A stretch of 64,000 nt of DNA from Terriglobia bacterium. GTDB taxonomy: Bacteria; Acidobacteriota; Terriglobia; Versatilivoradales; Versatilivoraceae. The stretch spans positions 4,844,760 to 4,908,759 of the forward strand of contig OZ244053.1 of NCBI GenBank assembly GCA_965215235.1, in the 5' to 3' direction. Under the pieces are notes generated by a model. The model was not told the DNA's origin and did not search any database. It worked only from the letters and a program-made list of their open reading frames with translations. Position numbers and translations under genes: made by a program. The number at the start of each line of letters is the position of its first letter. The first letter of the stretch is position 1. Shown piece after piece: positions 26,141 through 64,000 of this stretch.

Positions 26141-27847
26141 ATGCAGAAGAGATTCTGTCTCACCGTCCTGATCTCTTTGTTGGTGCTTCGGATAGGGATT
26201 CCCCTTTACCTCGGGGCAGGCAATCGTCCAGCCGATTCGACCTCCCTTGACATGACCTTTGTCGACGTCGCTGAGAAAGCCGGTCTCGATTTTCAGCACG
26301 TCAGCGGGAGTGCTGAGAAAACCTACATTTTGGAAGGAATGAGCGGGGGAGTGGCTTGGATCGACTACGACCGGGATGGTTGGCCGGACCTGTACCTAGT
26401 GAACGGCGGCCACTGGGAGGAGTTGCTGCAGGGCGAACGGAGTGTTTCCAACGCGCTTTACCGCAACAACCATGACGGCACCTTCACCAACGTTACCGGG
26501 AAAGCGGGGGTGGGCAACAGCCAGTGGGGAATGGGTGTCGCGGCGGCTGACTACAACAACGACGGCTGGATGGACCTCTACGTTTGCAACTACGGACCGA
26601 ACACGCTCTATCGCAACAACGGCAATGGCACCTTCACCGACGTCACCGCTCAAGCTCGGGTCGGGGATGGCCGCTGGGCGGTCAGTGCTGCTTTTGGGGA
26701 CTATGACGCCGATGGCCACTTGGACCTTTACGTGACCAACACCGTCACCTTTGACCACAAGAACCCGCCTCCCATGAACTGCCATTATCGCGGCATCATC
26801 GTCCAATGCGGCCCCCTCGGCCTGCCCTGTGACGCCGATGTCCTCTACCGCAATAACGGTGAGGGTGTCTTCGAGGATGTCACCCAAAAAGCCGGAGTGG
26901 CCGGGGTGAAGCCTTCCTATGGCCTCGGTGTGGTGTGGACCGACTACGACAACGATAAGGACCTGGACCTCTACGTGGCCAACGATCAGATGGCCAACTT
27001 CATGTTTCAGAATCAAGGCGACGGGACCTTCTTGGAGGTTGGTTTACTTTCCGGGGCCAGCTACTCCGATGACGGTATCGCCCAAGGCAGTATGGGAGTC
27101 GACTTCGGCGACTACGACCACGATGGATTCCTGGACATCTTCATCACTCACTTCGCCGACGACTACAACACACTCTATCGCAACCTGGGCAACGGGAATT
27201 TTCGTGATGTCAGCCACTTGGCTGAAGTGGCCTTCCCCAGTTGGTCGTTCCTGGCATGGGGCACCGGCTTTGTCGACGTCGACAACGACGGCTGGGAGGA
27301 TTTGTTCATCTCGAACGGGCACTTGTTTCCCCAAGTGGACCGCTACGATATGGGCCAAAGCTTTTACCAGCGCAGCCAGCTCTTTCGGAACTTGGGCAAC
27401 GGGAAATTCCGCGAGGCCAAGGCGGGGCTCGACCGGGTGAAACTCTGGTCCAGCCGAGGAGCCGCTTTTGCGGATTTTGACAACGATGGAGATATCGACG
27501 TCGCTGTCAACAATCTGGATGGAACACCCTGGCTGCTGCGGAATGATGGAGGCAGCCGGCGACGCTGGCTGAGCCTGCTGCTGGAAGGCGTGCAAAGCAA
27601 TCGCAGCGCCGTGGGAGCCCGAGTGACAGCCCAGGCGGAAACGGGTTTGCAGATTCGCGAAGTTCGGGCAGGGTCCAGCTATCAATCGACTCATGACCTG
27701 AGGGTGCATTTCGGCCTGGGCAAAGCCAGGCAGGTCAAGACACTGGAGGTCCGCTGGCCAGAGGGCACGGTACAGAGATTCACTAAAGTCTCCGGGAATC
27801 GGAGGTATCGGCTCAAGGAAGGAGGTCGTCTGGAGCGCAATGAATAG
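26141..27847 (+). CDS. CRTAC1-family protein (FG-GAP/VCBS beta-propeller repeats + C-terminal ASPIC/UnbV domain), paralog A (type I)
   Basis: ATG 26141 follows GGGAGGAG. Signal peptide is MQKRFCLTVLISLLVLRIG. Repeated D[YF]D[NRAH]DG[WHFD].D[LI][YF]V loops are present, plus the C-terminal ..NRSAVGARVTAQAETGLQIREVRAGSSYQSTHDLRVHFGLGKARQVKTLEVRWPEG. Confidence 0.85.
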   Translation: MQKRFCLTVLISLLVLRIGIPLYLGAGNRPADSTSLDMTFVDVAEKAGLDFQHVSGSAEKTYILEGMSGGVAWIDYDRDGWPDLYLVNGGHWEELLQGERSVSNALYRNNHDGTFTNVTGKAGVGNSQWGMGVAAADYNNDGWMDLYVCNYGPNTLYRNNGNGTFTDVTAQARVGDGRWAVSAAFGDYDADGHLDLYVTNTVTFDHKNPPPMNCHYRGIIVQCGPLGLPCDADVLYRNNGEGVFEDVTQKAGVAGVKPSYGLGVVWTDYDNDKDLDLYVANDQMANFMFQNQGDGTFLEVGLLSGASYSDDGIAQGSMGVDFGDYDHDGFLDIFITHFADDYNTLYRNLGNGNFRDVSHLAEVAFPSWSFLAWGTGFVDVDNDGWEDLFISNGHLFPQVDRYDMGQSFYQRSQLFRNLGNGKFREAKAGLDRVKLWSSRGAAFADFDNDGDIDVAVNNLDGTPWLLRNDGGSRRRWLSLLLEGVQSNRSAVGARVTAQAETGLQIREVRAGSSYQSTHDLRVHFGLGKARQVKTLEVRWPEGTVQRFTKVSGNRRYRLKEGGRLERNE

Positions 27848-28928
27848 CACGGACCTGAGAAGCATGAGCGGGACCTCGCAGGGACTCACAAAGACCCACG
27901 GACCGGCCGCCCGGCGGGGCATGGGTTCCGCTAAGGGATCGGCCCGAAAGCCGGACAACTCCCGGTGTTTGCGCCTGCGCTTTCTGCTGCAGGCGTCAGC
28001 GGTCCTTTGGATCAGCCTTTACAGTCCATCACTGGGGGCGGAGTCCCGCCATTACCGCGAAGCCAAAGACTTTTATGAGAAGCAACAGAATCTGATGGCG
28101 ATGCTGGCAGCCCAAAGGGCGGTGGAGGAAGATCCGGAGAATGCCGACCACGTCTTTCTCTACGGTCTGGTCTTGACCGATCTGAAGCAGTTCAGCGAGG
28201 CGGGTGTTCAGCTTCGCAAAGCTCTGACCCTCCAGCCGGACAATGCGGAGTTCCATTACCGCTTGGCCGCTCTCCTGTTGCAGGAGAAGATGGAGTGGAA
28301 GGCAACGCTGGGACTGGACCGGCGTGACAATAGCACCGTGGTCGTTTTGGGGACCGAACAGGAGGCTTTGAATTCCTTGGAGATGGCCGTCAAACTCGAC
28401 CCCAAGCACTTCAAGGCGCGCCTCCATCTGGGGCGCACTTATTACGACCGGAATCTGCACGACCGAGCGCGCCGGCAGTTCGAGGCGGTAGAGGAAAAGG
28501 ATCCGAACTATCCCTGGCTCCACTACCATTTGTCGATGCTCCACTCGACCGTCGGGGACGTGCAGGGGGCCATCCGCGAGTTGGAAAAGGAGCTGGAGCT
28601 CCATCCCGAACATTCCCAGGCGCGGCTGGAATTGGGGGAGTCGCTGGTCAAGACCGGTCGACTCAAAAGCGCCTTGACTCATCTCTCTCAGGTGGAGGCG
28701 CAAGAGGTGAATCCCGTAGACTTGAACTACGCCCTCGCCAAAGCCCACCGGGGCTTGGGCGATCCCGACCAGGCAATGGCCTCGGCGAAGAAGTGCCTCG
28801 AGATGGATCCCGAGTTCACCGACGCTCACTACCTGCTGGGCCAGCTCTACCGTGAAACGGGGCAGCCTGAACGGTCTCGCCAAGCCATGGAGACGTTTCA
28901 AAGAGTCAAGAAGAACCCGGTCCGCTGA
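27840..28928 (+). CDS. TPR-repeat protein, type I paralog A (8-nt overlap with the CRTAC1 gene)
   Basis: It has multiple 34-residue TPR-like repeats. The conserved block YEKQQNLMAMLAAQRAVEEDPENADHVFLYGLVLTDLKQFSEAGVQLRKALTLQPDNAEFHYRLAALLLQE is shared with the TPRs at 55990..57117 and 62296..63279. Confidence 0.8.
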   Translation: MNSTDLRSMSGTSQGLTKTHGPAARRGMGSAKGSARKPDNSRCLRLRFLLQASAVLWISLYSPSLGAESRHYREAKDFYEKQQNLMAMLAAQRAVEEDPENADHVFLYGLVLTDLKQFSEAGVQLRKALTLQPDNAEFHYRLAALLLQEKMEWKATLGLDRRDNSTVVVLGTEQEALNSLEMAVKLDPKHFKARLHLGRTYYDRNLHDRARRQFEAVEEKDPNYPWLHYHLSMLHSTVGDVQGAIRELEKELELHPEHSQARLELGESLVKTGRLKSALTHLSQVEAQEVNPVDLNYALAKAHRGLGDPDQAMASAKKCLEMDPEFTDAHYLLGQLYRETGQPERSRQAMETFQRVKKNPVR

Positions 28929-29291
28929 GCTCGGTCTGGTCTCTGTGGGTGAACCACGGCTGGCGGACCTGCCTCAAGGGCCAGATTCAAAAGGGCCGGG
29001 GGCCTGGGGAGGGCATCCGAGCCGACGAGGCAACCGCTCCTGTCCTCCCCCGGTATCGGTCGCGCAAAGATTGACTCCCAAGACTTTCCCCAAAAAACAA
29101 GTGAGACTTCTGCACAACTCAAAAATCTGACCATCGAACACTATATATAGTATGAAAGGCATCAGAAACCTACTACACAAAGCGTTTAGGTTTGGCCAAA
29201 CTGAGTTATGCGGAGGTCTCAAGTCTTACTCCACTCAAGTGATTGAAAGCAGGAGGGTCAGTAGATTCGACAAGTAGAACGGGTCGGATTT

Positions 29292-29560: not shown

Positions 29561-31171
29561 ATGAAACGATTGACATTGAGATGGACTTGCTGGCTTCTTT
29601 GCGGCATTCTCCTATCACCTTTATTGGTGGTGGAAGCCCAGAAGAAAAAAGACAGGCAGCGGGAGAAGTCACTCCGCCGAGAAACTCAGGACCAGTTCTT
29701 GAAGAAGTGGCTCAAGCAGGATGTCTCCTACATCATCACGCCGCAAGAGAGGGACGCTTTTCAGAGGCTGACCAGCGACGATGAGCGCTATCAGTTCATC
29801 GAACAGTTCTGGTTGAGGAGAGATCCCAATCCGGACACCGTCGTCAATGAGTTCCGTGACGAACATTACCGGCGCATTGCCTACGCCAACGAACGGTTCA
29901 CTTCAGGCAAGATGGGCTGGAGGACGGACCGTGGCCGGATCTACATCATGTATGGTCCGCCGGATCAGATCGAGACGTTCCATGGGGGCGGCACTTACTA
30001 CCGGCCTCACTGGGAAGGGGGAGGAGTGAGCAGCACTCATCCCTTTATCAAATGGCGGTACCGCTACCTCGAGGGGATGGATTTGGGACAGGAAGTGATC
30101 ATCGAGTTCGTGGACCGCACCCTTACCGGCGAGTATCGGATGGCGCTCGATCCTTTTGAAAAGGACGCCCTAAAAAATACTCCGGTCGCTGACCTGACCG
30201 AGAATCAGAGAATGGGTCTGGGAGACGACAGCAGCCGTCTCACCCGTTTCCCATCCGGATTGACCTATCAGCAATTCCAGATCACCCAATTCAATACCCT
30301 GCGACAGTTGGCGGCTCTCAACCGAGCGCCCGAGATCCGATTCAAGGACCTCGAAACTGTGGTTGACACCAAGCTCACCTACAACCTCTTTCCCTTTGAC
30401 TATCGGACCGACTTTATCAAGATTACCGAGGACACGATCTTGACGCCGATTACTGTAGAAATGAAGAATCGTGACATGACCTTCAAGAAAGAGAATGGCG
30501 TCCACAAAGCAGCGGTCAACATCTTTGGCAGGATCACCACCATCACGGGGCGACGGGTTCAGGTTTTCGAAGAGGTTGTTCAGCAAGTAGCACCTGACTC
30601 CTTGTTCAAGGAAGCTCTGGAGAAGCGTTCCTTGTATCAGACTCGCATCCCCTTGCGCTCGGGGCTTTACAAGCTGGAGTTGGTGGTCAAGGAACTCAAC
30701 AGCGGCAACATGGGAACCGTCTATCAAAGCATCCGGGTGCCCAAGTTCCCCCAAGACCAACTCGCCACCAGTAGCATTATCCTGGCCGAACAACTTGAAC
30801 GACTTCCCAGAAAGCAGGTGGCTGCCGGACAATTCGTGATCGGGAGCTCGAAAGTCCTTCCCAGTGTCGATGAGGCTTTTGACCGAAGCCAGCCCATGGG
30901 AGTTTATTTTCAGATCTATAACCTGGCCACCGATGAGCAGACAAAGAAGCCGTCGGCCACCATCGAGTATGTGCTGAAGAAAGGCGGACAGGAAATCGGG
31001 CGAGCCTTGGAGTCTAAAGATAAGTTAGCCGGAGCGGCTCAGCAAATGACCTTGCAGAAGCTGGTCGCCCTGGAGGAGTTGGACCCCGGTCGATACAGCC
31101 TGGTGGTTAATGTCACGGACAATGTGGTGAATCAATCGGTAGCCCCCGAGGCTAAATTCGTGGTGCGCTAG
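29561..31171 (+). CDS. GWxTD domain-containing secreted protein
   Basis: Signal peptide is MKRLTLRWTCWLLCGILLSPLLVVEAQ. The diagnostic motif is GKMGWRTDRGRIYIMYGPPDQIE. Confidence 0.85.
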   Translation: MKRLTLRWTCWLLCGILLSPLLVVEAQKKKDRQREKSLRRETQDQFLKKWLKQDVSYIITPQERDAFQRLTSDDERYQFIEQFWLRRDPNPDTVVNEFRDEHYRRIAYANERFTSGKMGWRTDRGRIYIMYGPPDQIETFHGGGTYYRPHWEGGGVSSTHPFIKWRYRYLEGMDLGQEVIIEFVDRTLTGEYRMALDPFEKDALKNTPVADLTENQRMGLGDDSSRLTRFPSGLTYQQFQITQFNTLRQLAALNRAPEIRFKDLETVVDTKLTYNLFPFDYRTDFIKITEDTILTPITVEMKNRDMTFKKENGVHKAAVNIFGRITTITGRRVQVFEEVVQQVAPDSLFKEALEKRSLYQTRIPLRSGLYKLELVVKELNSGNMGTVYQSIRVPKFPQDQLATSSIILAEQLERLPRKQVAAGQFVIGSSKVLPSVDEAFDRSQPMGVYFQIYNLATDEQTKKPSATIEYVLKKGGQEIGRALESKDKLAGAAQQMTLQKLVALEELDPGRYSLVVNVTDNVVNQSVAPEAKFVVR

Positions 31172-33534: not shown

Positions 33535-35771
33535 GTGAGGAAACGACACCGCCTGCTCCTCCCCACCCTAGGCCGATTAATCCTAGCGGTTTGCGGTCGA
33601 GTCGCTAGTCGATCCTATCACCTGTTGATTTTCTGGTTGCTCGGTAGTTTGCCAATACAGGCACAGAGGGGCCGGTTGGCAATCCAAACAGTCCCTCACT
33701 GAGACCCCAGCCTTACCAGCGCGCCGAAGCTTGCCTACCGTGTCACCAACGTCAGTACGACGAGCTGCGCAGTTCGGTCAAATCCGGCTACCGCAGTGTC
33801 AGTTCTGTATTCAATGCCTTGGAACTGGCTGGAAATTTCCTGAGCGGAGGCCGGCTACGGCCCGTCTATGGAGACAGCACGAAACTTACAGCCATCGACG
33901 TCACCGGAGTCGCGGGTCAAGGCAAGCCGCTCAACACCAACATGAACAGTGCGGCCTCCTTCACTCATATTAACCAAGTTCAGGCTGCCTTCTGTATTGG
34001 ATGTCATAACCCTCATATAGTGTTGATGGGGGAAGATCCTAACCAAAGGGAAATCCCCGAGCTGGAAGGGGTAGGCGGCAACTTTCGTCCGGATCAGATT
34101 CGCCCCTTGCGAGACTACCATTTTGTAGACAGCGCTAACCAACAAGTCCTGCCAGTTGAGATCGGTGGACCAGCACCGCCGGGTGCTGGACCGTCGCTGG
34201 GAGCCGATGGAATTACCTGTGATGTCTGTCATAACATCGCGGCTCCCGATCTGGACCGCAGCCCCAACCGTGATGGTCTTTCCAATGCCAGCTTTGAGTT
34301 ACTTCCCTCCATCAGCAAAGTAGGTCCCTTTTTGTTTCCGGCGCCCGTCAAGAACAACTTCCACGTTGCCAGTCGCGACCCCGTCCGGATTGCCTACTTG
34401 CGGAGCAGCGAATTCTGTGGTGGATGTCATGATGTCCGCGTACCTGGGGACGGTTCGGGTTCTCTGACCCACCAGGAAATCAGTCGGAACCCCGAAAGTC
34501 GGAGTGTCAGCCTTTTCCGGCTCGAAAATCTGAACACCGAGTGGATGACGGGTCCCTACAACAGTACCCAGAATCCATTTGGCAAGATCGTCCGTTGTCA
34601 GGACTGCCACATGTCTTTGTTTCCTTATAGCGGTGAAAGCACCTACCAAGTGGGAGAAATAGAGGTCACCAGTCCAACCCCAGGCCATTTTCCCTTGGAC
34701 TTCGCCGCCGTGCCGGGCATTTCGACAGACCTTGACTACCCACTGCAGAAGCGACCGGTGGTCACTCACTACATGACCGGAGTCGATGTGCCGCTCCTGA
34801 GGACAGAGGAATTGCGGACACGTCTCGGAGCGAACTACCCGGATGTCAATGAGCCCGGGTCGGATCAGTACGGAATTCCGCGGTCGCTGGCCAAGCGACG
34901 GGAGGATCTTTTAAGGGCTTCGGTTCGAATCAATCTGGACAAGTCAGATCGTAATGCACGGCTGGGCCAGCCTCTGATGGTCAGAGTGACGGCCGTGGCA
35001 CTGACCGGCCACCGTTTTCCGGCCGGATTCTCTCAAGAACGAACCGCCTACATCGAGCTCTCGATCCGGGACAACAAGGGATTTCTGGTCTACCAGTCCG
35101 GGTATGTCGTGGACAAGCCCCACCCGGAAGTCGGAGAGTTTGCCCCTGACGGGAATCTCGATGACGAAGATCCTGAGCACCTGCATGCCGTTGTCGACCC
35201 GGGAAGCCCGGTTACCCCCTATCGTGTGGGGCAATTCACCAACGGACATCGGAATCAGGTGTTCGAGCTGGGTCCGGACAACGGACCCGATGCGCGAATT
35301 TTTGTTGGAAAAGCGAGTGGCTTGGTGTTGTGGCGCAATGAGTTGACCCGGGTTTTCTTGCCGGGCGAAAGCCTAGGCCGCTTCAATGAGCAGGGTAATC
35401 CTCTCGTCTTGACCAGACCTCATTTTGAGGAAACCTTCAGCGCCGTGCTGGCAAACTCCGTCGACAACTACCGCTCGTTGCCACCATTGCAACCCAGGAC
35501 CTACAATTATGAAGTGATGCTTCCGACTAAAGAGGAACTGGAACTACTGGGGGTTGGAGAGCTGGAGTCGCCGCTCCGGGTTCACGCTCAAGTCAACTTC
35601 CTCCACTTCCCACCCTTGTTTCTGCGGTTTATGGCGAGAACCACCAGCGCCGAGGGGCCGGCAGGGCGCGACTTCCACCTGATTGACGAGAAACTCATTG
35701 ATGATCTCCTGGTTAACGTGCGCAGCATTGCCTCGGCAGATTTGACCATTGACTTGGTGGAACCACGATGA
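33535..35771 (+). CDS. Pentaheme c-type cytochrome (~740 aa) with a large C-terminal non-heme domain; apparent 1-nt frameshift near 33660-33670
   Basis: Five CXXCH motifs are present: CLPCH (upstream of the track ORF start, in the same frame from 33648), CIGCH, CDVCH, CGGCH and CQDCH. The signal-peptide-like N-terminus (VRKRHRLLLPTLGRLILAVCG..LLIFWLLGSLPIQAQ) lies in the frame of track ORF 33442..33702. A TGHRFPAGFSQER motif is also present. Confidence 0.7.
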
Positions 35772-36614: not shown

Positions 36615-36823
36615 ATGGGAGCGACGGTTTCGAAGAGGACTCACCCATCGTTAAGAGAAGCTCCAGTTGTGATTATGGATTGGGCTGACTTGAGAAACTT
36701 CACCTCCAATAGCCAGCCTCGCGGGGCTTCTCGAGGATGAGGGCGTCGGCCAAAAAGCCGTCTTTCTAGGTGCTTGATTTCTCAATTGTCTTTGTTTCTT
36801 TGTGAGGGTCTGGCTCATCGAGC

Positions 36824-43677: not shown

Positions 43678-43704
43678 GAAGACCCATAGCCTGATCCATG
43701 ACAG

Positions 43705-54183: not shown

Positions 54184-55993
54184 CCTTCAATCGCACTCCA
54201 TAGAACTGCACCCGGGAAGCCAATCCAGGCAGCTGTTCGGGTCGGACGCCTCCGGGCGTACCCGGCACGCTCTTGAGCGCCAGGACCACGTGGTTCAATC
54301 CTTGTCTCAAAGGCGGGACGTCTACGGGGTAGCTCAGCCGATACTCACGCTTTCTGGCGTCAGTCATGGTCCACTCTCCATCGTCCAGGGTCTTTCCATT
54401 CAACCGGCAGACCATGGCCTCGGGCCGGGCGGGCCCTCTCACATCGAGGGTCAGCCGCATTCCTCTCAGGGTCTGATTCTTCTTGGCCGCCCCCAGGTCA
54501 TCTCCGATAACCAGGGGGACTCTTCCCACCACGCCGTACTCGATGGCTCCCTCTCTGCTTACGGGCAGAGGCGGCTGACTGGAGATGTGAGCATAATAGT
54601 CGTAGACCCCTCCGGCATGGTTGTCCACGCAAAACAACTTGTCCTTGGCCTCGAGAGTTCGGCGCTCACCGATATCGGTTAAGCAGGCGTAAGAGCGCCG
54701 ACGGGTCTCGACCAGATCTTTCCCCCTCTTGTACTCGAAAGGAGACCCGAAGTTCCATACATAGATGCCATCAGCGCCGGACTGGAACCAGTTGCTGGCC
54801 AAACCCCGTACTCCCTCCAGGAAGTTTCCGCGCGACACAGTGGCTGCGGCTCCCTGGTTGATGCAGGGATAGACAAGAACTCCGTGTTGATGAGCTTGGG
54901 CAGTGAATTCTGCCAAGGGGAGACTGAAAGGAGCATAGCCGCCGCCGGCAATCAAAATATCGACAAGATCCTCTTCCAACCAACCCTTCAGATCCAGACC
55001 GACGTTCAAGGCCAGTGGGAAGCTGTCCGGGACTCGAGCTGCCAAAAGAAGCGGCCGCTCCCGCCGGTTGGCCTCGCTGTCGGTAAGCTGACGGATGCGG
55101 CGCATGAAAGCCGTCATGACCTCGACATCGGACGCGCTCACCGGCCGCCCCTGCAGGGTCGGACTAAAGAACACCGGATGGCGAATGAAATCCAACTCGA
55201 AGCCGTCGACGTCATACCGCTGGGCGACTTCTTCGATAATCTCGAACTTGCGCTGCCTGACCTCCTGGTGCGAGAAATCTTGCGCAGTGATATACAGATC
55301 GAGAGCGGTCTGCATACCGAGCGGATCGACCAGGAATTCCGGATGCTCCTTCTTCCATACCGTCAAGCCCCCCTCGATGAAGCTGTCGTGAACATCATTC
55401 ATGCGAACCGAGGCCAGAATTTCCATTCCGTGAGAGCGGGCGAAATCGATGACGATTTGCAATGGCCCGCGCCCGCCTTGGATGAGCTGTTTCACGTTGG
55501 AGGTCACCTTTGACCAATAAGCCGGCGGGCCTCCATGGGCATCGCCGTAGATGGGTTGGATCTTGCTGTTGTAAACCGGGGCGTCGGCCCAGCCTCCGAG
55601 GATTGACCAGGAAATCGTATCGACCTGGGTTCCGGCCAGAGGTTTGAGCCTGCGCTTCAGGAAACCTTCGGGGGTGTTGGCGTCCTCTCGGGACAGCTCG
55701 TAGCTATCGTCATTGAAGATGATGCGGCGCTGCCTTCCGGCAGCCGCCACTCGACTCTTCTTAGCCGCAGACCAACTTGCTTGTTGGTCCTGCATCGCTG
55801 GGGTGCAAGAATTCAGGCCGGGTAGGACCAGCAAGCAGGCCGTCAGTAAAATGCCGCTTTTCGTCCATTGGGTCCTGCCGCTTTGGCTCATCGTGTTCAC
55901 CTCATCGTTCCGGCCGGATTTTTGCCCCGGTCCCGAATGGCCATCAAGCAGCCTTGACGGCCATTGCCAGTGGTCTCGGCCGGCGAAAATCAT
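54164..55993 (-). CDS. Uncharacterised lipoprotein-like protein with a TIM-barrel glycoside-hydrolase-like (GHL10-like) core
   Basis: A lipobox-like LLTACLLVLPGLNSC is present. The strand-end motifs IIFNDDSYEL, VDTISWSI, ASVRMNDVHD and DVDGFELDFIRHP resemble (beta/alpha)8 GH-like families. An ATGA overlap links it to the upstream TPR stop. The family assignment is tentative. Confidence 0.5.
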   Translation of the reverse strand: MIFAGRDHWQWPSRLLDGHSGPGQKSGRNDEVNTMSQSGRTQWTKSGILLTACLLVLPGLNSCTPAMQDQQASWSAAKKSRVAAAGRQRRIIFNDDSYELSREDANTPEGFLKRRLKPLAGTQVDTISWSILGGWADAPVYNSKIQPIYGDAHGGPPAYWSKVTSNVKQLIQGGRGPLQIVIDFARSHGMEILASVRMNDVHDSFIEGGLTVWKKEHPEFLVDPLGMQTALDLYITAQDFSHQEVRQRKFEIIEEVAQRYDVDGFELDFIRHPVFFSPTLQGRPVSASDVEVMTAFMRRIRQLTDSEANRRERPLLLAARVPDSFPLALNVGLDLKGWLEEDLVDILIAGGGYAPFSLPLAEFTAQAHQHGVLVYPCINQGAAATVSRGNFLEGVRGLASNWFQSGADGIYVWNFGSPFEYKRGKDLVETRRRSYACLTDIGERRTLEAKDKLFCVDNHAGGVYDYYAHISSQPPLPVSREGAIEYGVVGRVPLVIGDDLGAAKKNQTLRGMRLTLDVRGPARPEAMVCRLNGKTLDDGEWTMTDARKREYRLSYPVDVPPLRQGLNHVVLALKSVPGTPGGVRPEQLPGLASRVQFYGVRLKVAYLSE

Positions 55994-57117
55994 CGGGAGA
56001 AATTGGCCATCTGTCCCTTCAGTTTCTCATAGGTTTCCAGTGCTTGGCGTGCCGACTGGGACTGGCCGGTATCCTCGTACAGTTTGGCCAGAAGGCGGTG
56101 GGCGGCCGGAATGTCCGGGGCGAGTTCAATACACTGCCGGACGGCTGTGATCGCTTTGTCGAGTTGTCCCAGCTTTCGATAGACCTTGGCTAAACCGAAA
56201 TAAAGATCGGGAAGAGAGACCGTTTCACTGTCTTTGGCGACGGCGGTCAACTGGGCCAGGGCCAACTTGGGCTTCCCGATCTGGAGTAGTAGGTCGCCCA
56301 GTTCCAGACGCGCTTGACCATGATCCGGATGGTAGGCCACCTCTCGCTGCAGGGCTTGAAGGGCCTCCTGAAACCTTCCGGCATCCAGATGAATGGCGCT
56401 CAAGTGGTAGTGGATCCAGGCGTAGCGGGGATCCTTGGAAGCCACCGTCTCAAACTGATGGAGGGCCTTGCTCCTCATGTTCTGCTCATGATAGGTGCGC
56501 CCCAGATGCATCCTGGCCTTGAGGTGATGGGGGTTCAGTTCCAAGGCTTTTTCAAGCAACTGAATGCTCTCTTCCACCGCCGTACTGGTGGAAATTCTGG
56601 AGCCCATCCCCATGGGGTCGGTCCTGTCCTTAGTCTCATTGCGTTCCTGCAGGATGAGAGCAGCCAAGCCATAGTGGAACTCGGCACTGGTGGGTTTTAG
56701 GGTCAGGGCTTTCCGCAGGTGCGGCTCAGCGTCGGTGAACTGTTTGAGTTGTAACAGAGTCATGCCGTACAAGTGCCGGTAGTCCGCGTTCTCACCATCC
56801 TGCTCCACAGCTTTCTGAGCCGCCAGCATTGCCAGCAGATATTCCTGGCGCTGGTACCTCTCTTGCGCTTCCCGATAGTCCTCCAATTGCCCGTGGAGGT
56901 GGGTCACAGAAAAAAAGAGAGTGGCCAGAGCCAAGGAGGCAGTTAGCCGGACTGATCGAGGGCACAGCGATTGGCTGACCGAAGACGTAGGCCTTTTGTC
57001 CTCCCTCCAACTTTCATTCTTGGTAATGAGCAACGTTTCCATAAGCAGGCGTGACTCTCCGGTCTGCCTGGATTCACTGGCGTCTAGGGCTCGGTCTTTG
57101 CGACGATTCGGATCCAA
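55990..57117 (-). CDS. TPR-repeat protein, type I paralog D
   Basis: YQRQEYLLAMLAAQKAVEQDGENADYRHLYGMTLLQLKQFTDAEPHLRKALTLKPTSAEFHYGLAALILQE is alignable with paralogs A and E. The start is uncertain (57117 or ATG approx 57042). Confidence 0.8.
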   Translation of the reverse strand: MDPNRRKDRALDASESRQTGESRLLMETLLITKNESWREDKRPTSSVSQSLCPRSVRLTASLALATLFFSVTHLHGQLEDYREAQERYQRQEYLLAMLAAQKAVEQDGENADYRHLYGMTLLQLKQFTDAEPHLRKALTLKPTSAEFHYGLAALILQERNETKDRTDPMGMGSRISTSTAVEESIQLLEKALELNPHHLKARMHLGRTYHEQNMRSKALHQFETVASKDPRYAWIHYHLSAIHLDAGRFQEALQALQREVAYHPDHGQARLELGDLLLQIGKPKLALAQLTAVAKDSETVSLPDLYFGLAKVYRKLGQLDKAITAVRQCIELAPDIPAAHRLLAKLYEDTGQSQSARQALETYEKLKGQMANFSR

Positions 57118-58244
57118 TGGTCGGCGAATTCGGAATGGGTCATAAAGCCTTCTTCAAAGGGCATATGACAAGAGCTGCACTCTCTGTTGGCTACAGAGCA
57201 GCTCGACCCCATGGAATTCTCGCCACCATGACAGGCCAGGCATTTCGGATCGTAGGACTCGGCCGATTGCGCCAATTTCTCATGCGGGTTATGGCAGGTC
57301 GTGCACTTCAGTTGCTCCGGACTCTCGCTGTAGCATTGGCTCAAAACCAATCGCTGAGCCGGGAAACGGGACACCCGTTTGTCGACCATGTACCTGGAAA
57401 GGGCTTGCAAGTCGCTACCCCCCGGCGGCGCCCCGTGGCAGGCGCCGCAGAAATAAAGCTGCTCAACTGCTGGCATTCTGCCGGGATTTCGTATGGTCGA
57501 GGCAGGATCGCTCTCTCCGTGGACCATGGCCTCGATATGGTTTTTGCCAGGCCCGTGACAGCGCTCACAGTGGACCCCGGCGTTGGCGGGGTCCATCTGC
57601 TCAGGCGGCAGGTCGGCATCTCGGGTGGTGTGGCAGGCAAAGCAATGCTCCCGTTGAGGGGGGGCCATCCAGTCCGCCAGTGCATCGTGGGCGTTGTCGA
57701 CTTTATCCTCCAACCCGGTGGTGATGTCCAGCCCTCCCGTTGTCTGGTACCAGCTCACCCGGCTCTGCCCGTAGGAGCCGGTGTCGGTCATGCCCACGAA
57801 GGTGATTCCTTTCCTCCCAGCCCCCATGCCCCAAAGTAAATGCAGTCTGTCAGTCTCTCCTGCCTTCGTGGCGACCAAGTCGAGGGTGAAATACTGGTTT
57901 TGGGATCGTTCAATGCGATATGCCACCTGATTCTGTGGATCGGGGAACTCCAAGGGAACGGTTTCCAGAAGCTGGGGAATTGAGCGTACTCTTCTCAGGG
58001 TTTGCGGGTGGCCACTCTCCAGTTGGACTTGGGTAATTTCCTTGTGGCACTGAACGCATTGACTCGAACCCACAAAGCCCGATCCATCCGAGGCCAGCGT
58101 CGGGGGCAGTCCCCTCGAGAGACAAATCACCACGGCCATCACCGAGAAAAGGTGGGAACCAAGACTCCTGCTCGGGGTGGCTGATCTTTTGAGTTGACTT
58201 CGGTGCGCCGGTTTGCCGATGGTGATAGGCATCAGTTGTTCCAC
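57084..58244 (-). CDS. Heptaheme c-type cytochrome (cytochrome c554-like family), paralog D
   Basis: Seven CXXCH motifs are present: CVQCH, CFACH, CERCH, CGACH, CTTCH, CLACH, CSSCH. The C-terminus is ..GFMTHSEFADHWIRIVAKTEP. It is a paralog of 63342..64000. Confidence 0.85.
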   Translation of the reverse strand: MEQLMPITIGKPAHRSQLKRSATPSRSLGSHLFSVMAVVICLSRGLPPTLASDGSGFVGSSQCVQCHKEITQVQLESGHPQTLRRVRSIPQLLETVPLEFPDPQNQVAYRIERSQNQYFTLDLVATKAGETDRLHLLWGMGAGRKGITFVGMTDTGSYGQSRVSWYQTTGGLDITTGLEDKVDNAHDALADWMAPPQREHCFACHTTRDADLPPEQMDPANAGVHCERCHGPGKNHIEAMVHGESDPASTIRNPGRMPAVEQLYFCGACHGAPPGGSDLQALSRYMVDKRVSRFPAQRLVLSQCYSESPEQLKCTTCHNPHEKLAQSAESYDPKCLACHGGENSMGSSCSVANRECSSCHMPFEEGFMTHSEFADHWIRIVAKTEP

Positions 58245-59716
58245 CTCCCGATCCCCATTTCCACACGAAACTCGGGGTTTTCCTGCAGCTGGCGATCGTG
58301 CTCATCTCGTTCCACCGGCCGCTGCCTTCGACCATTACGTTTCGCTCCAAGGTCCTTGGACTTGATCCACAAAGCGTTGCGGTAGCGAAATCCGTAAGGG
58401 GATTTGGGCTTGGAATCAAAGGGCACAAAGGTGAACCATTGGGACTTGTCACTAAGTACCCATCCTCCTCGGTTTTGGTAGCCGAAGCTGGGGTAAGCGG
58501 ACCGGCGAAGCCTGACTGAGAGGAATGAATTGGAGTGGGCCAACTGTTGGGCTCGCTGTTGGCTCCAGTGGTTGAGCTCATCCGGCTTTTTTAGCTTGGC
58601 TGAGTGTAGCTTGGACGTTGTCGTCTCGAGCCGGTAGCTTCTGCCTGCTTTGAGCCGCCGCCTCTTCTGATGCTTCCCCATCCAATCCAGAGCGCCTTTA
58701 TGGATCGAGACGCTCAACCGCGGCTCGACGCTGATGCGATACAGTCCCTTGGCGAGGACTTGGATGTCGCCACCCGGAGTTGAGATGGACAAAGAATGGA
58801 TGGCAGGGTTGAAGACGGCAGATTCCACAATGACTTCCCCCTGCAAAACCTCGAACTGCATCTTTGGATAGCCCGTCCGGATGAATCGGACCCGACTCTT
58901 CTCGGCCAACCGTAAATAGCTGCCCGGATTCAAGAGCAACTCGGCCCGACCATTTTCCAAGGTCCTTAATTGTCCCCCAGCGTTCATCTCGTGGCCGGCC
59001 GTCAACAACCAGCGGTTTCTACCGGAGACAAAGTATTGCGGCGGTCTCCCCCAGAAGCTGTTCAATAAGAAAGCAGAACGCACTTGGCCCCACGGGTCCA
59101 GAGGGTCGCGACTGTGCTTGCCCAGTTCGACGACCACCGGACTGTCTTCGGCAGCAGCACTGAGGACGAACCGCTTGCCATCGTTCAAGCTGAGTGGTTG
59201 GCCGTCTCCCTTCAGCCAATTCAACTTGCCGGCGTGAACCGTAACCTCCGCCGAAGACGGGTCCTTCACTTGAATTCGATAGAATCCACCTTTGAGAAAC
59301 TCCAGATCGCCAGCCGGTGTCGATAGACTGAAGGCATGGCGCTTGCTCTTGAAGCCTGCTGATTCGACGACAACGGTTCCCTCCAGGACTCGGAAGTGCA
59401 TCTTTCGGTAGGCCGTGTTGAGAACCTCCAGTCGGGCTTGGTCGACGAGACGAAGATAACCGCCGGGCTGCAACATGATTTCGAGACGGTCCCCACGGCG
59501 TGTATGGATATGATCCTGAGGCTTCAGTCTGTGGCCGATTGGGAGTTCACCCGGCGCGCCATTTCCGCCGGGCAGAAGCAGGTGCTTTCCCTTGACATAT
59601 CTGACAATGCCGGCGTGAGGGTGAGAAATGTGGGCGGCAGGATCCTGCGCCGAAGCCCGGGCAACTCCACTAAGAAGCAGGAAGCCACCAGCCACAGCCA
59701 AGGCCACCGTTCTCAT
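58232..59716 (-). CDS. Secreted protein with two FecR-like domains
   Basis: Signal peptide is MRTVALAVAGGFLLLSGVARASAQ. The internal duplication is ..RGDRLEIMLQPGGYLRLVDQARLEVLNTAYRKMHFRVLEGTVVVESAG..FSLSTPAGDLEFLKGGFYRIQV versus ..NGRAELLLNPGSYLRLAEKSRVRFIRTGYPKMQFEVLQGEVIVESAV..LSISTPGGDIQVLAKGLYRISV. Confidence 0.65.
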   Translation of the reverse strand: MRTVALAVAGGFLLLSGVARASAQDPAAHISHPHAGIVRYVKGKHLLLPGGNGAPGELPIGHRLKPQDHIHTRRGDRLEIMLQPGGYLRLVDQARLEVLNTAYRKMHFRVLEGTVVVESAGFKSKRHAFSLSTPAGDLEFLKGGFYRIQVKDPSSAEVTVHAGKLNWLKGDGQPLSLNDGKRFVLSAAAEDSPVVVELGKHSRDPLDPWGQVRSAFLLNSFWGRPPQYFVSGRNRWLLTAGHEMNAGGQLRTLENGRAELLLNPGSYLRLAEKSRVRFIRTGYPKMQFEVLQGEVIVESAVFNPAIHSLSISTPGGDIQVLAKGLYRISVEPRLSVSIHKGALDWMGKHQKRRRLKAGRSYRLETTTSKLHSAKLKKPDELNHWSQQRAQQLAHSNSFLSVRLRRSAYPSFGYQNRGGWVLSDKSQWFTFVPFDSKPKSPYGFRYRNALWIKSKDLGAKRNGRRQRPVERDEHDRQLQENPEFRVEMGIGRWNN

Positions 59717-60469
59717 CGCATTCCCTCTCGCTTATCAGAAACCTGAACCCGTCATCAGCGCGGTGGGTGCAAGCTGGCACAGCTAATCGGCCGCTGACCC
59801 CTTGAAAATCCGCTGCCTTGGGCGTATACGGTCCCGATTCAGAAGTAGCATCGACTGTCGAACATCCTCCGGCACATCCAATCCGGCAACACCCTGCCCC
59901 CCTGATACGGTTCCCTGTGAACGCACCTATCGCGGTGCGCGTCTCAGGCCAAGTACCCCTATTCTAAAGATCCTTCTTCGTCGATTCCAGTCTGTTCAGA
60001 AGTTTCCTCGCCAAGGCAAGGATACTGGGAGCCATGGCGTCCCGCCCGCTCTGGGGGACCGCAGGTCCCTGCTTGTGGCCGCCTTTCAGATACACCCAGC
60101 AGTCCATGTCGTTTCCGACTACTCAGCGAACGGCTTTAAGAGATTTTTGTCACATCGATGGGCTGGATGTACCGGATGTTTCAATCCAGCAGCCCCGATC
60201 CTGTATATCCTGTTCATCGATGTTCAATAATGAATGACACTGCCTCACGGAGACTGACACCTCTGTTGATCTCCCCAGGTGGATTGCCTCCGACGCAGAT
60301 GCAGATAAAGTGACCGATGGATGCACCGAGTTGGGGAGGCGTCCCGTAGGCTTGCCAGCCCAGGGGCAGTCACGACCCATGCTAAAATCAACAGAGATGG
60401 CAAGGGTGGGTGCTGTTTTCGACGAAACGTGGCCTTCCAGCCACTCATGCAAGAAGTCTGAACCCAGAG

Positions 60470-62168
60470 ATGAACAAGGTTCTAATACTGAGCTTGGTTG
60501 CCTGTCTGACCGGATTGGCGAGGACAGCGGCCAATGATTCGCCCCTTTCCGGAAAGTCGTTGTCTGCCTCCCCCCCCTTGGTCTTTCAGGACGTGGCCGC
60601 CGAAGCGGGATTGGATTTTCAGCACTTCAGCGGAAGTCCCGAGAAACAGTACATCCTGGAGAGTATGAGTGGGGGAGTGGCCTGGATCGACTTCGACCGG
60701 GACGGGTGGGTGGATCTCTATCTGGTCAATGGAGGTCATTGGGAGGAGTTGGTTCAGGGAAAGCGCACGGTCTCCAATGCTCTCTATCGGAACAACGGCG
60801 ATGGAACCTTCACCAACGTAACCCGGAAGGCAGGAGTAGGCAATCAACACTGGGGCATGGGAGTGGCGGCCGGAGACTACAACAACGACGGCTGGGTCGA
60901 CTTGTTCGTCTGCAACTACGGTCCCAATACTCTCTACCGCAACAATGGGGATGGCACCTTTACGGACGTGACCGCCGAGTCCCATGTGGGTGATGGTCGC
61001 TGGGCGGTGAGCGCCGCTTTTGGCGACTACGATGAGGATGGTTGGTTGGATCTTTATGTCACCAACACGGTCCAGTTTGACTACAAGAATCCCGATCCCA
61101 TGGATTGCCACTATCGGGGAATTACCGTTCAGTGCGGCCCCCTGGGCATGATTGGTGATTCCGACATCCTCTACCGCAACAATCGTGACGGCACCTTTGG
61201 TGACGTGAGTGAGCCGGCTGGCGTAGCAGGTGTGACCCCTTCCTATGGTTTGGGCGCCATTTGGAGCGACTACGACAACGATGGAGACCTCGACCTCTAT
61301 GTGGCCAACGATCAGATGGCCAACTTTCTCTTTCGGAATAAGGGAAATGGCGCCTTCGAAGAGGTCGGACTCTTTGCCGGGGGCCGCCTTCAGCGATGAC
61401 GGCGTGGCTCAAGGCAGCATGGGAGTGGATTTCGGTGACTACGACCGCGACGGCCTGCTGGATATTTTCATCACCCATTTTTCCGATGACTACAACACGC
61501 TTTTTCGAAACCTGGGCCAGGGACGATTTCGTGACATGACCCGGGCGGCCGGCTTGACCTTCAACAGTTGGCCGATGGTGGGTTGGGGAACCGGTTTCGT
61601 AGACCTGGACCATGATGGCTGGGAAGACATCTTTGCCGCCAACGGCCACGTTTTTCCCCAAGTGGATGGATACAAAATCGGCACCAGTTTCCATCAACGC
61701 AGCCAGGTTTTTCGAAACCTGGGCGATGGAAAGTTCGAAGAAGTCTCGGCTGGACTCGACAAACTCAAGTCTTGGTCCAGTCGGGGTGTGGCCTTTGCGG
61801 ACTTCGATAACGACGGGGACATCGATGTCGCCGTCAACAACCTGGATGGCGTTCCCTGGCTGTTGAAGAATCAGAAGGGGAGTCAGGCTGGCAACTGGCT
61901 TGTCCTTTCTCTGGAAGGGTCCCGGACCAATCGCAGCGGCATCGGGGCCAGAGTCACCATCAAGACCGGGACAGGACAACAGATCCGGGAGGTGCGCGGG
62001 GGATCCAGCTACGAATCGACCCACGACTTTCGGGTCCACTTCGGCCTTGGCCCGGCGGAGACCGTAAAGAAGTTGAGCATCCGTTGGACCGACGGAACGA
62101 CCCAGACCTTTGAAAAGGTGGTGGCCAACCGGAGCTACCGACTGAAGGAAGGTGGCGAGCTAGAGTAG
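60470..62168 (+). CDS. CRTAC1-family protein (FG-GAP/VCBS + UnbV), paralog E (type I); frameshift at the G5 run 61379-61383
   Basis: Signal peptide is MNKVLILSLVACLTGLARTAA. Track ORFs 60410..61399 and 61245..62168 join as ..FEEVGLFAG|AAFSDDGVAQGSMGVDFGDYDRDGLLDIFITHF, collinear with paralog A. Length is 3n+1. Confidence 0.8.
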
Positions 62169-62295: not shown

Positions 62296-63279
62296 TTGTC
62301 GGTCATGATCCAGCTTTTCCTGTTTTTCTTCACGGCATCTCTCTTCAACTTTGGGGTGGCGCGGGCCTCCGAATCGCCCCGTTACCTGGAGGCCCAGGAG
62401 AGGTATCAGAAGAAGGAATACCTCTTGGCCATGTTGGCCGCTGAGAAGGCTGTGCAGGAAGATGGAGAGAATGCCAACCATCGCTACCTCTACGGGGCCG
62501 TCCTGGCAGCGTTGAAGCAGTTTTCCGATGCCGAAAGCCATCTCCGTAAGGCCGTCGCCTTGGAGCCCCAAAACGCGGAGTCCCTTTACCAGCTGGGGCT
62601 GGTTCTTCTCGAACAGTCGAAGGAAGCGGTCATCAGACGTGGGATGAGTTCTGGCCTGAGATTGTCGCGCAGCGAGGCCATCGATCCCGAGGGTGTGGGA
62701 GTCTTGGAGCGAGCTGTCGAGTTGGATGCCGATCACTTGGAGGCCCGCGTGCGTCTGGCTCGTGCCTATACGGATCAAAATCGCTATGATGAGGCTCTCG
62801 AGCAGTTCAAGGCCGTTGCCGACAGGGATCCTCAATATCCCGACATCCACTCCCACTTGGCTGTGCTCTACCTGAAGATGGGACAGGTTACCCAGGCGAT
62901 CCAGGAGCTGAAAACTGAAGTGGGCTTTTATCCTGACAACGCCATGGCCCGTCTGGACCTTGGTGATCTGCTGTTGCAGTTGGCTCAGCCCAAGCTGGCC
63001 CTGAAGCATCTCCTTGTGGTTGAGCGGAAGAGCCCGGAAACCCCCGACCTCCACTACGCTTTGGCCAGAACCTACCATGCGCTGGGTCGGTTCAAGAATG
63101 CCACGGCCTCAGCGCGCAAGTGCGTCGAGCTGGCCCCGAATTCACCTGCCCCTCGCTACCTGTTGGCGCAGCTCTATCGCCAAAGTGGTCGATCCGATTG
63201 GGCTCGCCAGGAGTTGTCAACTGCAGAAAGACTGAGAAACCAACTGGCTGAAACCTACCGTCCCCCCAAGGCGAACTGA
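62296..63279 (+). CDS. TPR-repeat protein, type I paralog E
   Basis: YQKKEYLLAMLAAEKAVQEDGENANHRYLYGAVLAALKQFSDAESHLRKAVALEPQNAESLYQLGLVLLEQ is alignable with paralogs A and D. Confidence 0.8.
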   Translation: MSVMIQLFLFFFTASLFNFGVARASESPRYLEAQERYQKKEYLLAMLAAEKAVQEDGENANHRYLYGAVLAALKQFSDAESHLRKAVALEPQNAESLYQLGLVLLEQSKEAVIRRGMSSGLRLSRSEAIDPEGVGVLERAVELDADHLEARVRLARAYTDQNRYDEALEQFKAVADRDPQYPDIHSHLAVLYLKMGQVTQAIQELKTEVGFYPDNAMARLDLGDLLLQLAQPKLALKHLLVVERKSPETPDLHYALARTYHALGRFKNATASARKCVELAPNSPAPRYLLAQLYRQSGRSDWARQELSTAERLRNQLAETYRPPKAN

Positions 63280-63341
63280 GCCGGCCGCCTGGCCGGGAAC
63301 CGGAGTGTTCAAAATTCCGGGAGGCCAACTGCGGTCTTCAA

Positions 63342-64000
63342 TCAGTTGGAGGTCGAAACGACCCGAATCCAGTGGTCGGCGAATTCGGAATGGGTCATGA
63401 AACCGGCCTCTTCAGGCATGTGGCATCGAACGCAGTCGTTGTCAGCTTGGGGACAGTGGCTGGCGAATTTTGCTTCCGCGCCGTGGCAGCTCAGGCAGTT
63501 CTGATCGAACGAACTGGCTAGATTCTCGTGAGGATTGTGGCAGGTCGTGCACTTGAGCCGTCCCCCGCTCTCGTTGTAGCAGCGACTGAGGACCAGCCGC
63601 TTGGCGGGGAATCGGACGCTATGATTCATGGCCATGGCGTGACCCAATGCTCTCAGGTCGGCTCCCCCCGGGGGAATGCCGTGGCAGGCGCCGCAAAAGT
63701 AGATCTGCTCGAGGGCGCCCAGGCGGCCTGGGTTGTCGATGCCGTGGGATGGGTTCTTTGAATTTTGAGCCATTGCCAGGATGTGTTGCTCACCCGACCC
63801 GTGGCAGCGCTCGCAGTGAACGCCGGCATCCGCCTCCCGTATGGAATCGGGAGGGACCTCCGCGTTACGGGTCATATGGCAGCTCAGGCAATGCTCGCTC
63901 TCATGGGGATTCATCCAACCCGCCAAGGCGTCGTAGGCGTTGACAGGGCGTTTCTCCAGCCCGGTAGTGACAGATAGTTGGCCGGTCTTCTGATACCAGC
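63342..64000 (-). CDS. Multiheme c-type cytochrome, paralog of 57084..58244; N-terminus beyond the right window edge
   Basis: Six CXXCH motifs are visible (CLSCH, CERCH, CGACH, CTTCH, CLSCH, CVRCH). The C-terminus is ..GFMTHSEFADHWIRVVSTSN. The frame stays open upstream of the track start (63926) to the window end (..TGLEKRPVNAYDALAGWMNPH..). Confidence 0.85.
   Translation of the reverse strand, partial: WYQKTGQLSVTTGLEKRPVNAYDALAGWMNPHESEHCLSCHMTRNAEVPPDSIREADAGVHCERCHGSGEQHILAMAQNSKNPSHGIDNPGRLGALEQIYFCGACHGIPPGGADLRALGHAMAMNHSVRFPAKRLVLSRCYNESGGRLKCTTCHNPHENLASSFDQNCLSCHGAEAKFASHCPQADNDCVRCHMPEEAGFMTHSEFADHWIRVVSTSN

Follow-up and report, generated by a model that had tools for sequence, protein, structure and literature searches.

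The stretch of DNA analyzed here (hereinafter the window) comprises 64,000 nucleotides (nt) of the genome of a Terriglobia bacterium from the phylum Acidobacteriota (GenBank assembly GCA_965215235.1, contig OZ244053.1, positions 4,844,760 to 4,908,759 of the forward strand). From position 26,141 to the end of the window, this genome encodes four CRTAC1-type propeller proteins, five tetratricopeptide repeat (TPR) proteins and, in the same modules, three multiheme c-type cytochromes, as judged from Pfam matches and counts of CXXCH motifs (Table 1). The genes of each type are paralogous to one another, and the region appears to be made up of clustered, anciently duplicated versions of an envelope gene set conserved among Acidobacteriota. 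An initial annotation, made from the sequence alone, had described five pairs of CRTAC1 and TPR genes; the number of TPR genes stands whereas that of the CRTAC1 genes is four because, in one of the modules (D), the place of CRTAC1 is held by a TIM-barrel protein. The assignments of FG-GAP/UnbV and TPR domains were all confirmed by Pfam, the TPR sequence blocks quoted in that annotation are present in the translations, and the cytochromes are indeed multiheme proteins, with eight CXXCH motifs in CYT_C, seven in CYT_D and six in the part of CYT_E that lies within the window; the full-length product of the latter gene (P0017) consists of 376 amino acids (aa) and contains seven.

Table 1. Genes of the paralogous modules and their neighbors (positions counted from the first nucleotide of the window)
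Feature	Positions	Strand	Evidence and remarks
CRTAC1_A	26141-27847	+	Pfam FG-GAP_3 9e-60, UnbV_ASPIC 1e-22; signal peptide
TPR_A	27840-28928	+	TPR Pfam families; secreted; 8-nt overlap with CRTAC1_A
GWxTD-domain protein	29561-31171	+	Pfam GWxTD_dom; recurrent neighbor of TPR genes
Outer-membrane barrel, CarboxypepD_reg + OMP_b-brl_4, TonB-dependent-receptor-like	40330-43677	+	Upstream of module B; OMP_b-brl_4 8e-149
TPR_B, C-terminal EF-hand pair	44807-46040	+	Frameshift near 45734-45740 needed; TPR Pfam in 44807-45931
CRTAC1_B	46244-47921	+	Pfam-matched stretch 46049-47921; frameshift at G-runs 46894-46902
CYT_C, octaheme c-type cytochrome	48494-50356	+	8 CXXCH; Pfam Cytochrom_C552 + C554
TPR_C	50430-51353	+	Pfam; starts 74 nt downstream of CYT_C
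CRTAC1_C	51602-53317	+	Pfam-matched stretch 51494-53317
PhyH-family dioxygenase	53386-54183	-	Pfam PhyH 1e-29; last gene of minus-strand operon
GH156-like TIM-barrel protein	54164-55993	-	PDB 6rzd E=3.5e-21; weak GHL10 Pfam match
TPR_D	55990-57117	-	Pfam; overlaps of 34 nt with CYT_D and 4 nt with the GH156-like gene
CYT_D, heptaheme c-type cytochrome, C-terminus HSEFADHWIRIV	57084-58244	-	7 CXXCH
Secreted protein with two FecR domains	58232-59716	-	Pfam FecR 4e-19; first operon gene; 13-nt overlap with CYT_D
CRTAC1_E	60470-62168	+	Pfam-matched stretch 60410-62168; frameshift at GGGGG 61379-61383
TPR_E	62296-63279	+	Pfam
CYT_E, 3' two-thirds of heptaheme cytochrome	63342-64000	-	Cut by window end; convergent with TPR_E

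All parts of the modules carry N-terminal export signals, as judged by eye from the translations. The same inspection revealed lipobox-like motifs in the signal peptide of CRTAC1_E (LVAC) and in the GH156-like protein (LNSC), and no lipobox cysteine in the TPR proteins, the window cytochromes or most of the CRTAC1 proteins. The open reading frame (ORF) coordinates indicate that module D is a five-gene minus-strand operon with overlapping gene ends, encoding the FecR-domain protein, CYT_D, TPR_D, the GH156-like protein and the PhyH protein. The TIM-barrel protein of this operon had been described as a lipoprotein that replaces CRTAC1; its position is borne out, its identity can be refined to a homolog of the GH156 exosialidase, and a lipoprotein nature is only possible. 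The PhyH protein is a dioxygenase of the Fe(II)/2-oxoglutarate type, and its gene shares 20 nt with the end of the gene for the GH156-like protein. The PhyH protein has a homolog in the same position in the closest genome found, a metagenome-assembled genome (MAG) of Ca. Versatilivorator (Terriglobia; L001), and the FecR-domain gene is syntenic in L001 and in L081, a relative of the window organism. A scan of positions 44-64 kb for promoters and terminators yielded no more sites than were found in shuffled sequence, and no operon boundaries were gained from it.

The proposed division into two module types agrees with the all-against-all protein identities. The CRTAC1 proteins are 71% identical in the A/E pair and, after frameshift repair, 81% identical in the B/C pair versus about 45% between the types; the TPR proteins show 42-46% identity among A, D and E (46% for TPR_A and TPR_D) and 56-57% between B and C; and the cytochromes show 59% between CYT_D and CYT_E and 22% between CYT_C and CYT_D. 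In a nucleotide self-comparison, the CRTAC1 genes of modules B and C align with 82.6% identity over 1613 nt and those of A and E with 72% over 1464 nt, and the TPR genes gave no self-match in the same scan, so that the suggested likeness of B and C at the nucleotide level holds for CRTAC1 and not for TPR. In L001, the gene order of modules C, D and E is identical to that in the window, and the identity between orthologs amounts to 70-85% (81% for CRTAC1_C and 85% for CRTAC1_E). Because these values exceed those for the A/E pair and for every TPR pair in the window, the CRTAC1 A/E duplication and all the TPR splits took place before the lineages of the window and of the Ca. Versatilivorator relative diverged; the CRTAC1 B/C split is probably of an age similar to that divergence, or else the two copies were homogenized. 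Thus, the amplification by segmental duplication that had been proposed is not a recent event but an old, lineage-specific expansion. In L081, toxin-antitoxin-type gene pairs (Gp49/HTH_3 and HicB-like; 11216-11788 and 17146-17676) are located between the modules. In both relatives, a GWxTD gene again lies beside a TPR gene just past the position of the window end (L001 1149-2858; L081 6932-8545), which implies a sixth TPR paralog there.

Three of the module genes (TPR_B, CRTAC1_B and CRTAC1_E) are broken in the sequence as given, and each can be read through only when a single base is corrected within a G/C run. The frame of TPR_B changes at a GGG run, and the EF-hand tail is reached only thereafter; on the repaired tail, Pfam matched a pair of EF-hands, as the initial annotation had it. 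The frame switch in CRTAC1_B was located exactly by tblastn with CRTAC1_C as the query. In addition, the gene for a ~15-heme cytochrome nearby (38436-39805) is split over three frames. Altogether, this 38-kb region contains five frameshifts in genes that are otherwise conserved; those three that were inspected are all located at G/C runs, and the orthologs in L001 are intact. The location at G/C runs, together with the split ~15-heme gene, suggests uncorrected long-read homopolymer errors in the source assembly, whose contig here is 5.2 Mb long, to which pseudogenization is an equally likely alternative.

After the repair, each of the four CRTAC1 proteins contains seven Dx[DN]xDG calcium motifs and, at the C-terminus, the UnbV_ASPIC domain (PF07593) with a score above the cut-off (E = 1e-22 to 4e-20); along with the FG-GAP_3 matches, these features place all four in the family of calcium-binding FG-GAP propellers, as had been stated. 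As a single query sequence, CRTAC1_A matched the human CRTAC1 structure 9etn with E = 7e-19, and a profile of bacterial CRTAC1 proteins (A3) matched it with E = 4e-33; in the Protein Data Bank (PDB), integrin alpha chains were the only matches of this profile besides CRTAC1. The bacterial proteins share the FG-GAP calcium blades with vertebrate CRTAC1 and the integrin alpha propellers and the UnbV_ASPIC domain with the former but, unlike vertebrate CRTAC1, they contain no Pfam domains beyond these two and are encoded in operons with TPR proteins, a barrel and a cytochrome. To our knowledge, no function has been established for the bacterial members of this family, which spans bacteria to human cartilage. 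A role of CRTAC1 as a polysaccharide lyase was considered, in view of a presumed likeness to PL11-type propeller lyases, and was rejected: the profile search of the PDB, which returned CRTAC1 and integrins and no lyase, provided no support for it. The only mention of bacterial ASPIC/UnbV proteins in the literature found is the analysis of paralogous families of Ca. Solibacter usitatus, which include ASPIC/UnbV and TonB-receptor-like proteins (PMC3174227). CRTAC1 is also connected to heme proteins in another, independent setting, the clusters of hydrazine synthase (HZS) homologs outside the anammox bacteria, where a CRTAC1-family gene lies between the genes for two heme-c/propeller subunits; there, however, the heme proteins are homologs of HZS alpha and beta-gamma, and no TPR protein or barrel is reported (PMC12758564). 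In a Terrimonas (Bacteroidota) MAG (L076 6009-9311), a CRTAC1-type protein of 1101 aa with extra FG-GAP repeats after UnbV_ASPIC abuts the cytochrome.

The association of these genes recurs in other genomes. In a cytochrome-centered survey of 80 loci, with one genome per GTDB species and screening with hidden Markov models (HMMs) built from the window paralogs, 45 loci from other species were complete, with 10-kb flanks on either side (21 kb). Of these, 29 contain CRTAC1, 29 contain TPR, 27 contain both, and 21 encode the cytochrome, CRTAC1 and TPR proteins along with an OMP_b-brl_4 barrel; the association is seen throughout Acidobacteriota and in a small number of Planctomycetota. The nearest copy lies less than 2 kb from the cytochrome in 15 of the 29 loci with CRTAC1 and in 18 of the 29 with TPR (binomial P = 1e-4 and 9e-7, respectively, relative to an even distribution among five 2-kb bins rather than to the genomic density of CRTAC1). 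Within 300 bp of the cytochrome, 27 of the 80 loci have a TPR gene, which lies on the cytochrome strand in 21 cases, and 15 have CRTAC1, compared with a rough expectation of ~1% even for 50 copies in a 6-Mb genome. One acidobacterial locus (L082) encodes, on a single strand and with minimal gaps, a barrel, two TPR proteins, the cytochrome, another TPR protein and four tandem CRTAC1 proteins, the latter at 13140-20351. A reverse survey of 80 metagenome loci that were picked through CRTAC1 gave a different weighting: TPR is present in 48, the barrel in 28 and the cytochrome in only 5, and a TPR gene is the immediate neighbor of CRTAC1 in 34 of the 63 informative loci. Because the cytochrome is missing from 75 of these 80 loci, it is not essential to the core, which therefore appears to consist of the secreted superhelical TPR protein and the seven-blade calcium propeller CRTAC1, usually with the barrel alongside, the cytochrome being an accessory. 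The secreted three-part module that was originally envisaged stands with respect to its recurrence and the TPR scaffold but not to the number of parts, given that the barrel is a fourth partner and the cytochrome is optional.

The cytochromes belong to the NrfA/c554/OcwA superfamily, with OcwA as the best match of both types: a profile of the heptaheme proteins retrieved OcwA (6i5b, E = 3e-12) from the PDB, along with MccA, MtrA, c554 and NrfA, and CYT_C matched 6i5b and NrfA. Similarly to OcwA of Thermincola potens, NrfA, c554 and MccA, the window cytochromes are secreted, rich in CXXCH motifs and matched by the Pfam families C552 and C554; however, the identity to OcwA is ~19-22% over part of the chain, and the window proteins contain seven or eight hemes. 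The window type further differs from the rest of the superfamily by a predicted beta-sheet domain inserted between hemes 1 and 2, which is seen in the models of both the window cytochrome and a TPR fusion, by the HSxFADHWIR end and by the obligate TPR partner or fusion. This ending is conserved among the heptaheme homologs, and both window heptahemes end in HSEFADHWIR[IV]V, as originally noticed. CYT_D has 982 homologs at E < 1e-5, and the seven heme motifs are invariant in an alignment of 17 homologs (A1) as well as in 119 homologs. The octaheme CYT_C, which has a C-terminal extension of ~150 residues without CXXCH, represents a family of at least 7209 proteins; one of its homologs has genes for a barrel, FG-GAP proteins and a BNR sialidase-like protein in the vicinity.

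In a subset of the loci, the cytochrome with seven or eight hemes appears to be physically tied to the TPR protein, through separate, translationally coupled genes in the window and as a single polypeptide in other phyla. Gene fusions are the strongest argument that the adjacency is not due to chance. Fusions of the cytochrome with a C-terminal TPR domain were identified in at least 23 ORFs from Bacteroidota, Rhodothermales, Gemmatimonadota, Marinimicrobia, Ignavibacteria, Vicinamibacteria and Acidobacteriaceae; the order of the fused domains is that of the genes in the CYT_D/TPR_D and CYT_C/TPR_C pairs, and in Isosphaeraceae it is reversed, with the TPR domain N-terminal to the cytochrome. 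A fusion query retrieved at least 3807 proteins at E ≤ 1e-10, of which the 120 best-scoring ones are all full-length cytochrome-TPR fusions. Most of this family is unnamed in the source databases, the few named members being called 'tetratricopeptide repeat protein', and 86 of 119 fused proteins carry a lipoprotein signal. The AlphaFold2 model of a 697-residue fusion (119-sequence alignment; pLDDT 91.8, pTM 0.90) predicts that the two halves form one rigid unit; a fold search with this model was dominated by generic TPR matches and added nothing on the cytochrome half. In one Bacteroidota locus (L058), the fusion gene directly follows a SusC/SusD pair. TPR-CRTAC1 fusions, with the TPR domain at either end, exist as well (L094, L161 and L141). 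Being linked physically to both the cytochrome and CRTAC1, the TPR protein is adaptor-like; the two kinds of fusion and the predicted fusion structure support the scaffold function originally assigned to it. The five TPR paralogs are all similar to the TPR domain of the fusions (100-120 bits), and this comparison did not tell a cytochrome-side from a CRTAC1-side TPR protein.

A second cytochrome set is encoded at 33819-39805 and includes a 650-aa protein with four CXXCH motifs, a small TPR protein, a 526-aa protein and the ~15-heme cytochrome. The 526-aa protein has no Pfam or PDB match and is a possible barrel, and the layout resembles a porin-cytochrome pair; PDB sequence searches with the products of 33819-35771 and 36824-38404 found no match. 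Upstream, at 23576-25932, are genes for a class-III aminotransferase, which we presume to be hemL, and for ALAD, the hemB enzyme of heme biosynthesis, and the stretch directly downstream of these encodes at least five multiheme cytochromes.

The neighbors of the cytochrome link these loci to carbohydrates. When all the ORFs of 82 cytochrome loci were clustered without prior labels, the families found in most loci were CRTAC1 (40 loci) and the barrel (39 loci), followed by GWxTD proteins (13), family 3 glycoside hydrolases (GH3; 9), LacI regulators (7), GH13, GFO/IDH/MocA oxidoreductases, ROK and GH37 (4 each), GH31 and GH2 (3 each) and GH10 (2); GH106 and GH39 were also found among the neighbors. 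Among the 62 acidobacterial cytochrome loci, 39 encode the barrel and 26 at least one of nine carbohydrate-related families. In four Terriglobales loci (L014, L037, L044 and L060), LacI is encoded directly upstream of the cytochrome and divergently from an operon for the barrel, two TPR proteins and CRTAC1, and Granulicella sp. L46, a cultured strain, has the genes for the barrel, a TPR protein, GH31 and the cytochrome, in this order, in a single run. A random sample of other neighbors is led by LacI-type regulators, major facilitator superfamily (MFS) transporters, GH3 and GFO/IDH/MocA and includes two pyrroloquinoline quinone (PQQ) dehydrogenases. The window barrel consists of CarboxypepD_reg and OMP_b-brl_4, with a weak match to TonB_dep_Rec_b-barrel in Pfam.

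The layout resembles known transporter-centered carbohydrate-utilization loci, in which a constant envelope core is combined with variable enzymes. As in the SusC/SusD polysaccharide utilization loci (PULs) of Bacteroidota and the carbohydrate utilization loci with TonB-dependent transporters (CUT loci) of Proteobacteria, a CarboxypepD_reg barrel is encoded beside an all-helical repeat protein, diverse glycoside hydrolases surround a constant core, and the regulators are of the sugar type (LacI, ROK and FecR-domain proteins). Unlike in the Bacteroidota PULs, there is no SusD_RagB match, the TPR proteins are not lipoproteins and the barrel has no detectable Plug domain, and unlike in either kind of locus, the core always includes the CRTAC1 propeller, and a multiheme cytochrome is embedded; we know of no described PUL or CUT locus with these two components. 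Thus, among the hallmarks of a Bacteroidota PUL, the co-localized carbohydrate-active enzymes and the sugar-type regulator are present whereas the SusC-type Plug and a SusD-like lipoprotein were not detected. Because the core differs, these loci can be likened to the Bacteroidota type in the way they would work but are not assigned to it.

From the domain identities, paralogy, conserved gene order, both kinds of fusion and the carbohydrate-gene context, we infer, and give an even chance to, the possibility that these are transporter-centered glycan-acquisition loci equipped with a TPR-tethered electron-transfer arm. Under this scenario, the barrel would take up or present a glycan-derived substrate, and the CRTAC1 propeller, or the glycosidase that takes its place, would bind or process the substrate in a calcium-dependent manner. 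The TPR superhelix could be the adaptor on which the propeller (or the glycosidase) and the cytochrome dock, and the cytochrome might relay electrons from a redox step in substrate conversion, for example, periplasmic oxidation of sugars, to the respiratory chain. A more specific version, in which bacterial CRTAC1 represents an as yet unrecognized class of calcium-dependent carbohydrate-acting proteins and the TPR-docked heptaheme cytochrome passes electrons to the respiratory chain or an external acceptor, so that glycan foraging with a built-in redox arm is common to Acidobacteriota and, through the fused lipoprotein form, to Bacteroidota and Rhodothermota, is quite unlikely in our estimate.

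Several observations weigh against a glycan-acquisition system with an electron-transfer arm. No Plug domain was detected between CarboxypepD_reg and the barrel even at E ≤ 10 (window 40627-41109; L082 4876-5400), so that TonB-dependent uptake is only putative. Carbohydrate-related genes are often, but not always, present in the loci, and the 94 randomly sampled other neighbors belong to 141 Pfam families, the largest of which have three to five members. No inner-membrane electron partner recurs in the cytochrome loci, and CRTAC1 shows no motif for a redox cofactor. The rarity of the cytochrome in the CRTAC1-centered loci and the uniform reference behind the binomial estimates count against this scenario as well. 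The AlphaFold2 model of the window cytochrome (17-sequence alignment) has a pLDDT of 61, because of which its best Foldseek match, OcwA, is only indicative.

The principal competing explanation is that the cytochromes form an extracellular electron-transfer conduit to Fe(III), Mn(IV) or humic acceptors, with the barrel, propeller and TPR proteins as an outer-membrane scaffold; regulation by sugars would, in this case, make an electron sink available whenever there is substrate. We consider this unlikely, although OcwA, to which both cytochrome types come closest among the solved structures, is a cell-surface cytochrome, MtrA and MccA are matched as well, most of the fused proteins are predicted lipoproteins, and the window also encodes the ~15-heme cytochrome beside a putative barrel and the hemB and presumed hemL genes. 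The window cytochromes, however, have only seven hemes in the case of the heptaheme type, look soluble and lack a lipobox; the barrel of the 39 acidobacterial loci is CarboxypepD_reg/TonB-receptor-like and belongs to a family other than that of the MtrB-type porins of porin-cytochrome conduits; the recurrent neighbors are glycosidase, LacI, ROK and MFS genes; and the CRTAC1-TPR-barrel sets mostly come without a cytochrome. Furthermore, the hosts include many Terriglobales, for example, Granulicella, and these are aerobic. In favor of a conduit, Desulfovibrio ferrophilus and its relatives possess cytochrome islands with a secreted beta-propeller of unknown role, and beta-propeller proteins are conserved in the cytochrome clusters of electron-transferring organisms (PMC8322314). 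The loci described here share with these islands and with the MtrCAB/Pcc conduits the combination of multiheme cytochromes with a barrel and a secreted beta-propeller (PMC8322314), but the propeller is of the seven-blade FG-GAP/UnbV type as opposed to the six-blade type in D. ferrophilus, and the barrel is TonB-receptor-like, the cytochromes short and the context glycosidase-rich rather than respiratory as in porin-cytochrome conduits.

Polysaccharide export or outer-membrane assembly, with the TPR protein and barrel acting like AlgK/AlgE, PgaA or BcsC, the TPR protein and propeller like BamD/BamB, and a periplasmic glycosidase trimming the exported polymer, appears improbable. A TPR protein, a barrel and a periplasmic glycosidase make up the standard layout of synthase-dependent exopolysaccharide systems, and the TPR proteins weakly match the PgaA, BcsC and PEP-CTERM PrsT models, all far below the cut-offs; nevertheless, neither a synthase nor a glycosyltransferase is among the recurrent neighbors, which are catabolic (GH3, GH13, GH31, GH37, LacI, ROK, MFS), the TPR and most of the CRTAC1 proteins lack a lipobox, and there are many copies per genome. 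Still less can be said for TPR proteins that function as CcmI/CycH-like chaperones holding the apocytochrome during heme attachment, next to an unrelated CRTAC1, and this is highly improbable: all five match Pfam TPR_CcmH_CycH with 43.6-52 bits (cut-off 42), but ~25 other TPR models match the same proteins more strongly, the TPR gene pairs with CRTAC1 in CRTAC1-centered loci (34/63) without a cytochrome and is fused to CRTAC1 elsewhere, and a permanent fusion modeled as one rigid unit is ill-suited to a transient chaperone. Chance adjacency of genes that are simply abundant in Acidobacteriota, as the paralogous ASPIC/UnbV and TonB-receptor-like families of Ca. Solibacter usitatus (PMC3174227) might suggest, is extremely improbable, and the initial annotation had already doubted it. 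It is contradicted by the two independent kinds of gene fusion, the conservation of overlapping same-strand gene order across orders and the proximity of CRTAC1 and TPR genes to the cytochrome far above the rough expectation.

The remaining part of the window differs in composition. Positions 1-17923 form a block with 66-70% G+C, compared with ~57% elsewhere, where all the module genes are located; the block ends at a tyrosine integrase gene (17054-17923, minus strand) and looks like an acquired island, although the sole tRNA gene (Val, 21217-21291) is not at its edge. Besides glycosyltransferases, the block encodes a protein of 2279 aa (ORF 3782-10621, minus strand) in which leucine-rich repeats occur together with O-antigen-ligase and family 4 glycosyltransferase (GT4) domains. 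At 1298-5051, a unit of ~1.25 kb is repeated three times in tandem (1298-2521, 2546-3777 and 3802-5051) with 88-91% nucleotide identity, each copy carrying a GT4 glycosyltransferase.

None of the NCBIfam models covers any component of the gene set, no description of it was found in the full-text literature searched, and no paper was found under the genus name Versatilivorator, in agreement with the earlier view that the system is undescribed. The interest of these loci lies in a large family of cytochrome-TPR proteins that has no name, in a consistent gene context, the first one, for CRTAC1 in bacteria and in a testable link between glycan acquisition and multiheme cytochromes. Acidobacteriota are among the most abundant soil bacteria, yet little is understood of the way in which they capture polymers; the core of barrel, TPR protein and CRTAC1 would be the acidobacterial counterpart of the SusC/SusD marker of Bacteroidota utilization loci, and its fixed operon context provides the first functional handle on bacterial CRTAC1. 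The cytochrome-TPR family has thousands of members, mostly unnamed but confidently modeled, and the presence of a multiheme cytochrome inside glycan loci, under apparent sugar control, is unexpected. Granulicella sp. L46, being cultured, makes the connection between glycans and the cytochrome testable.

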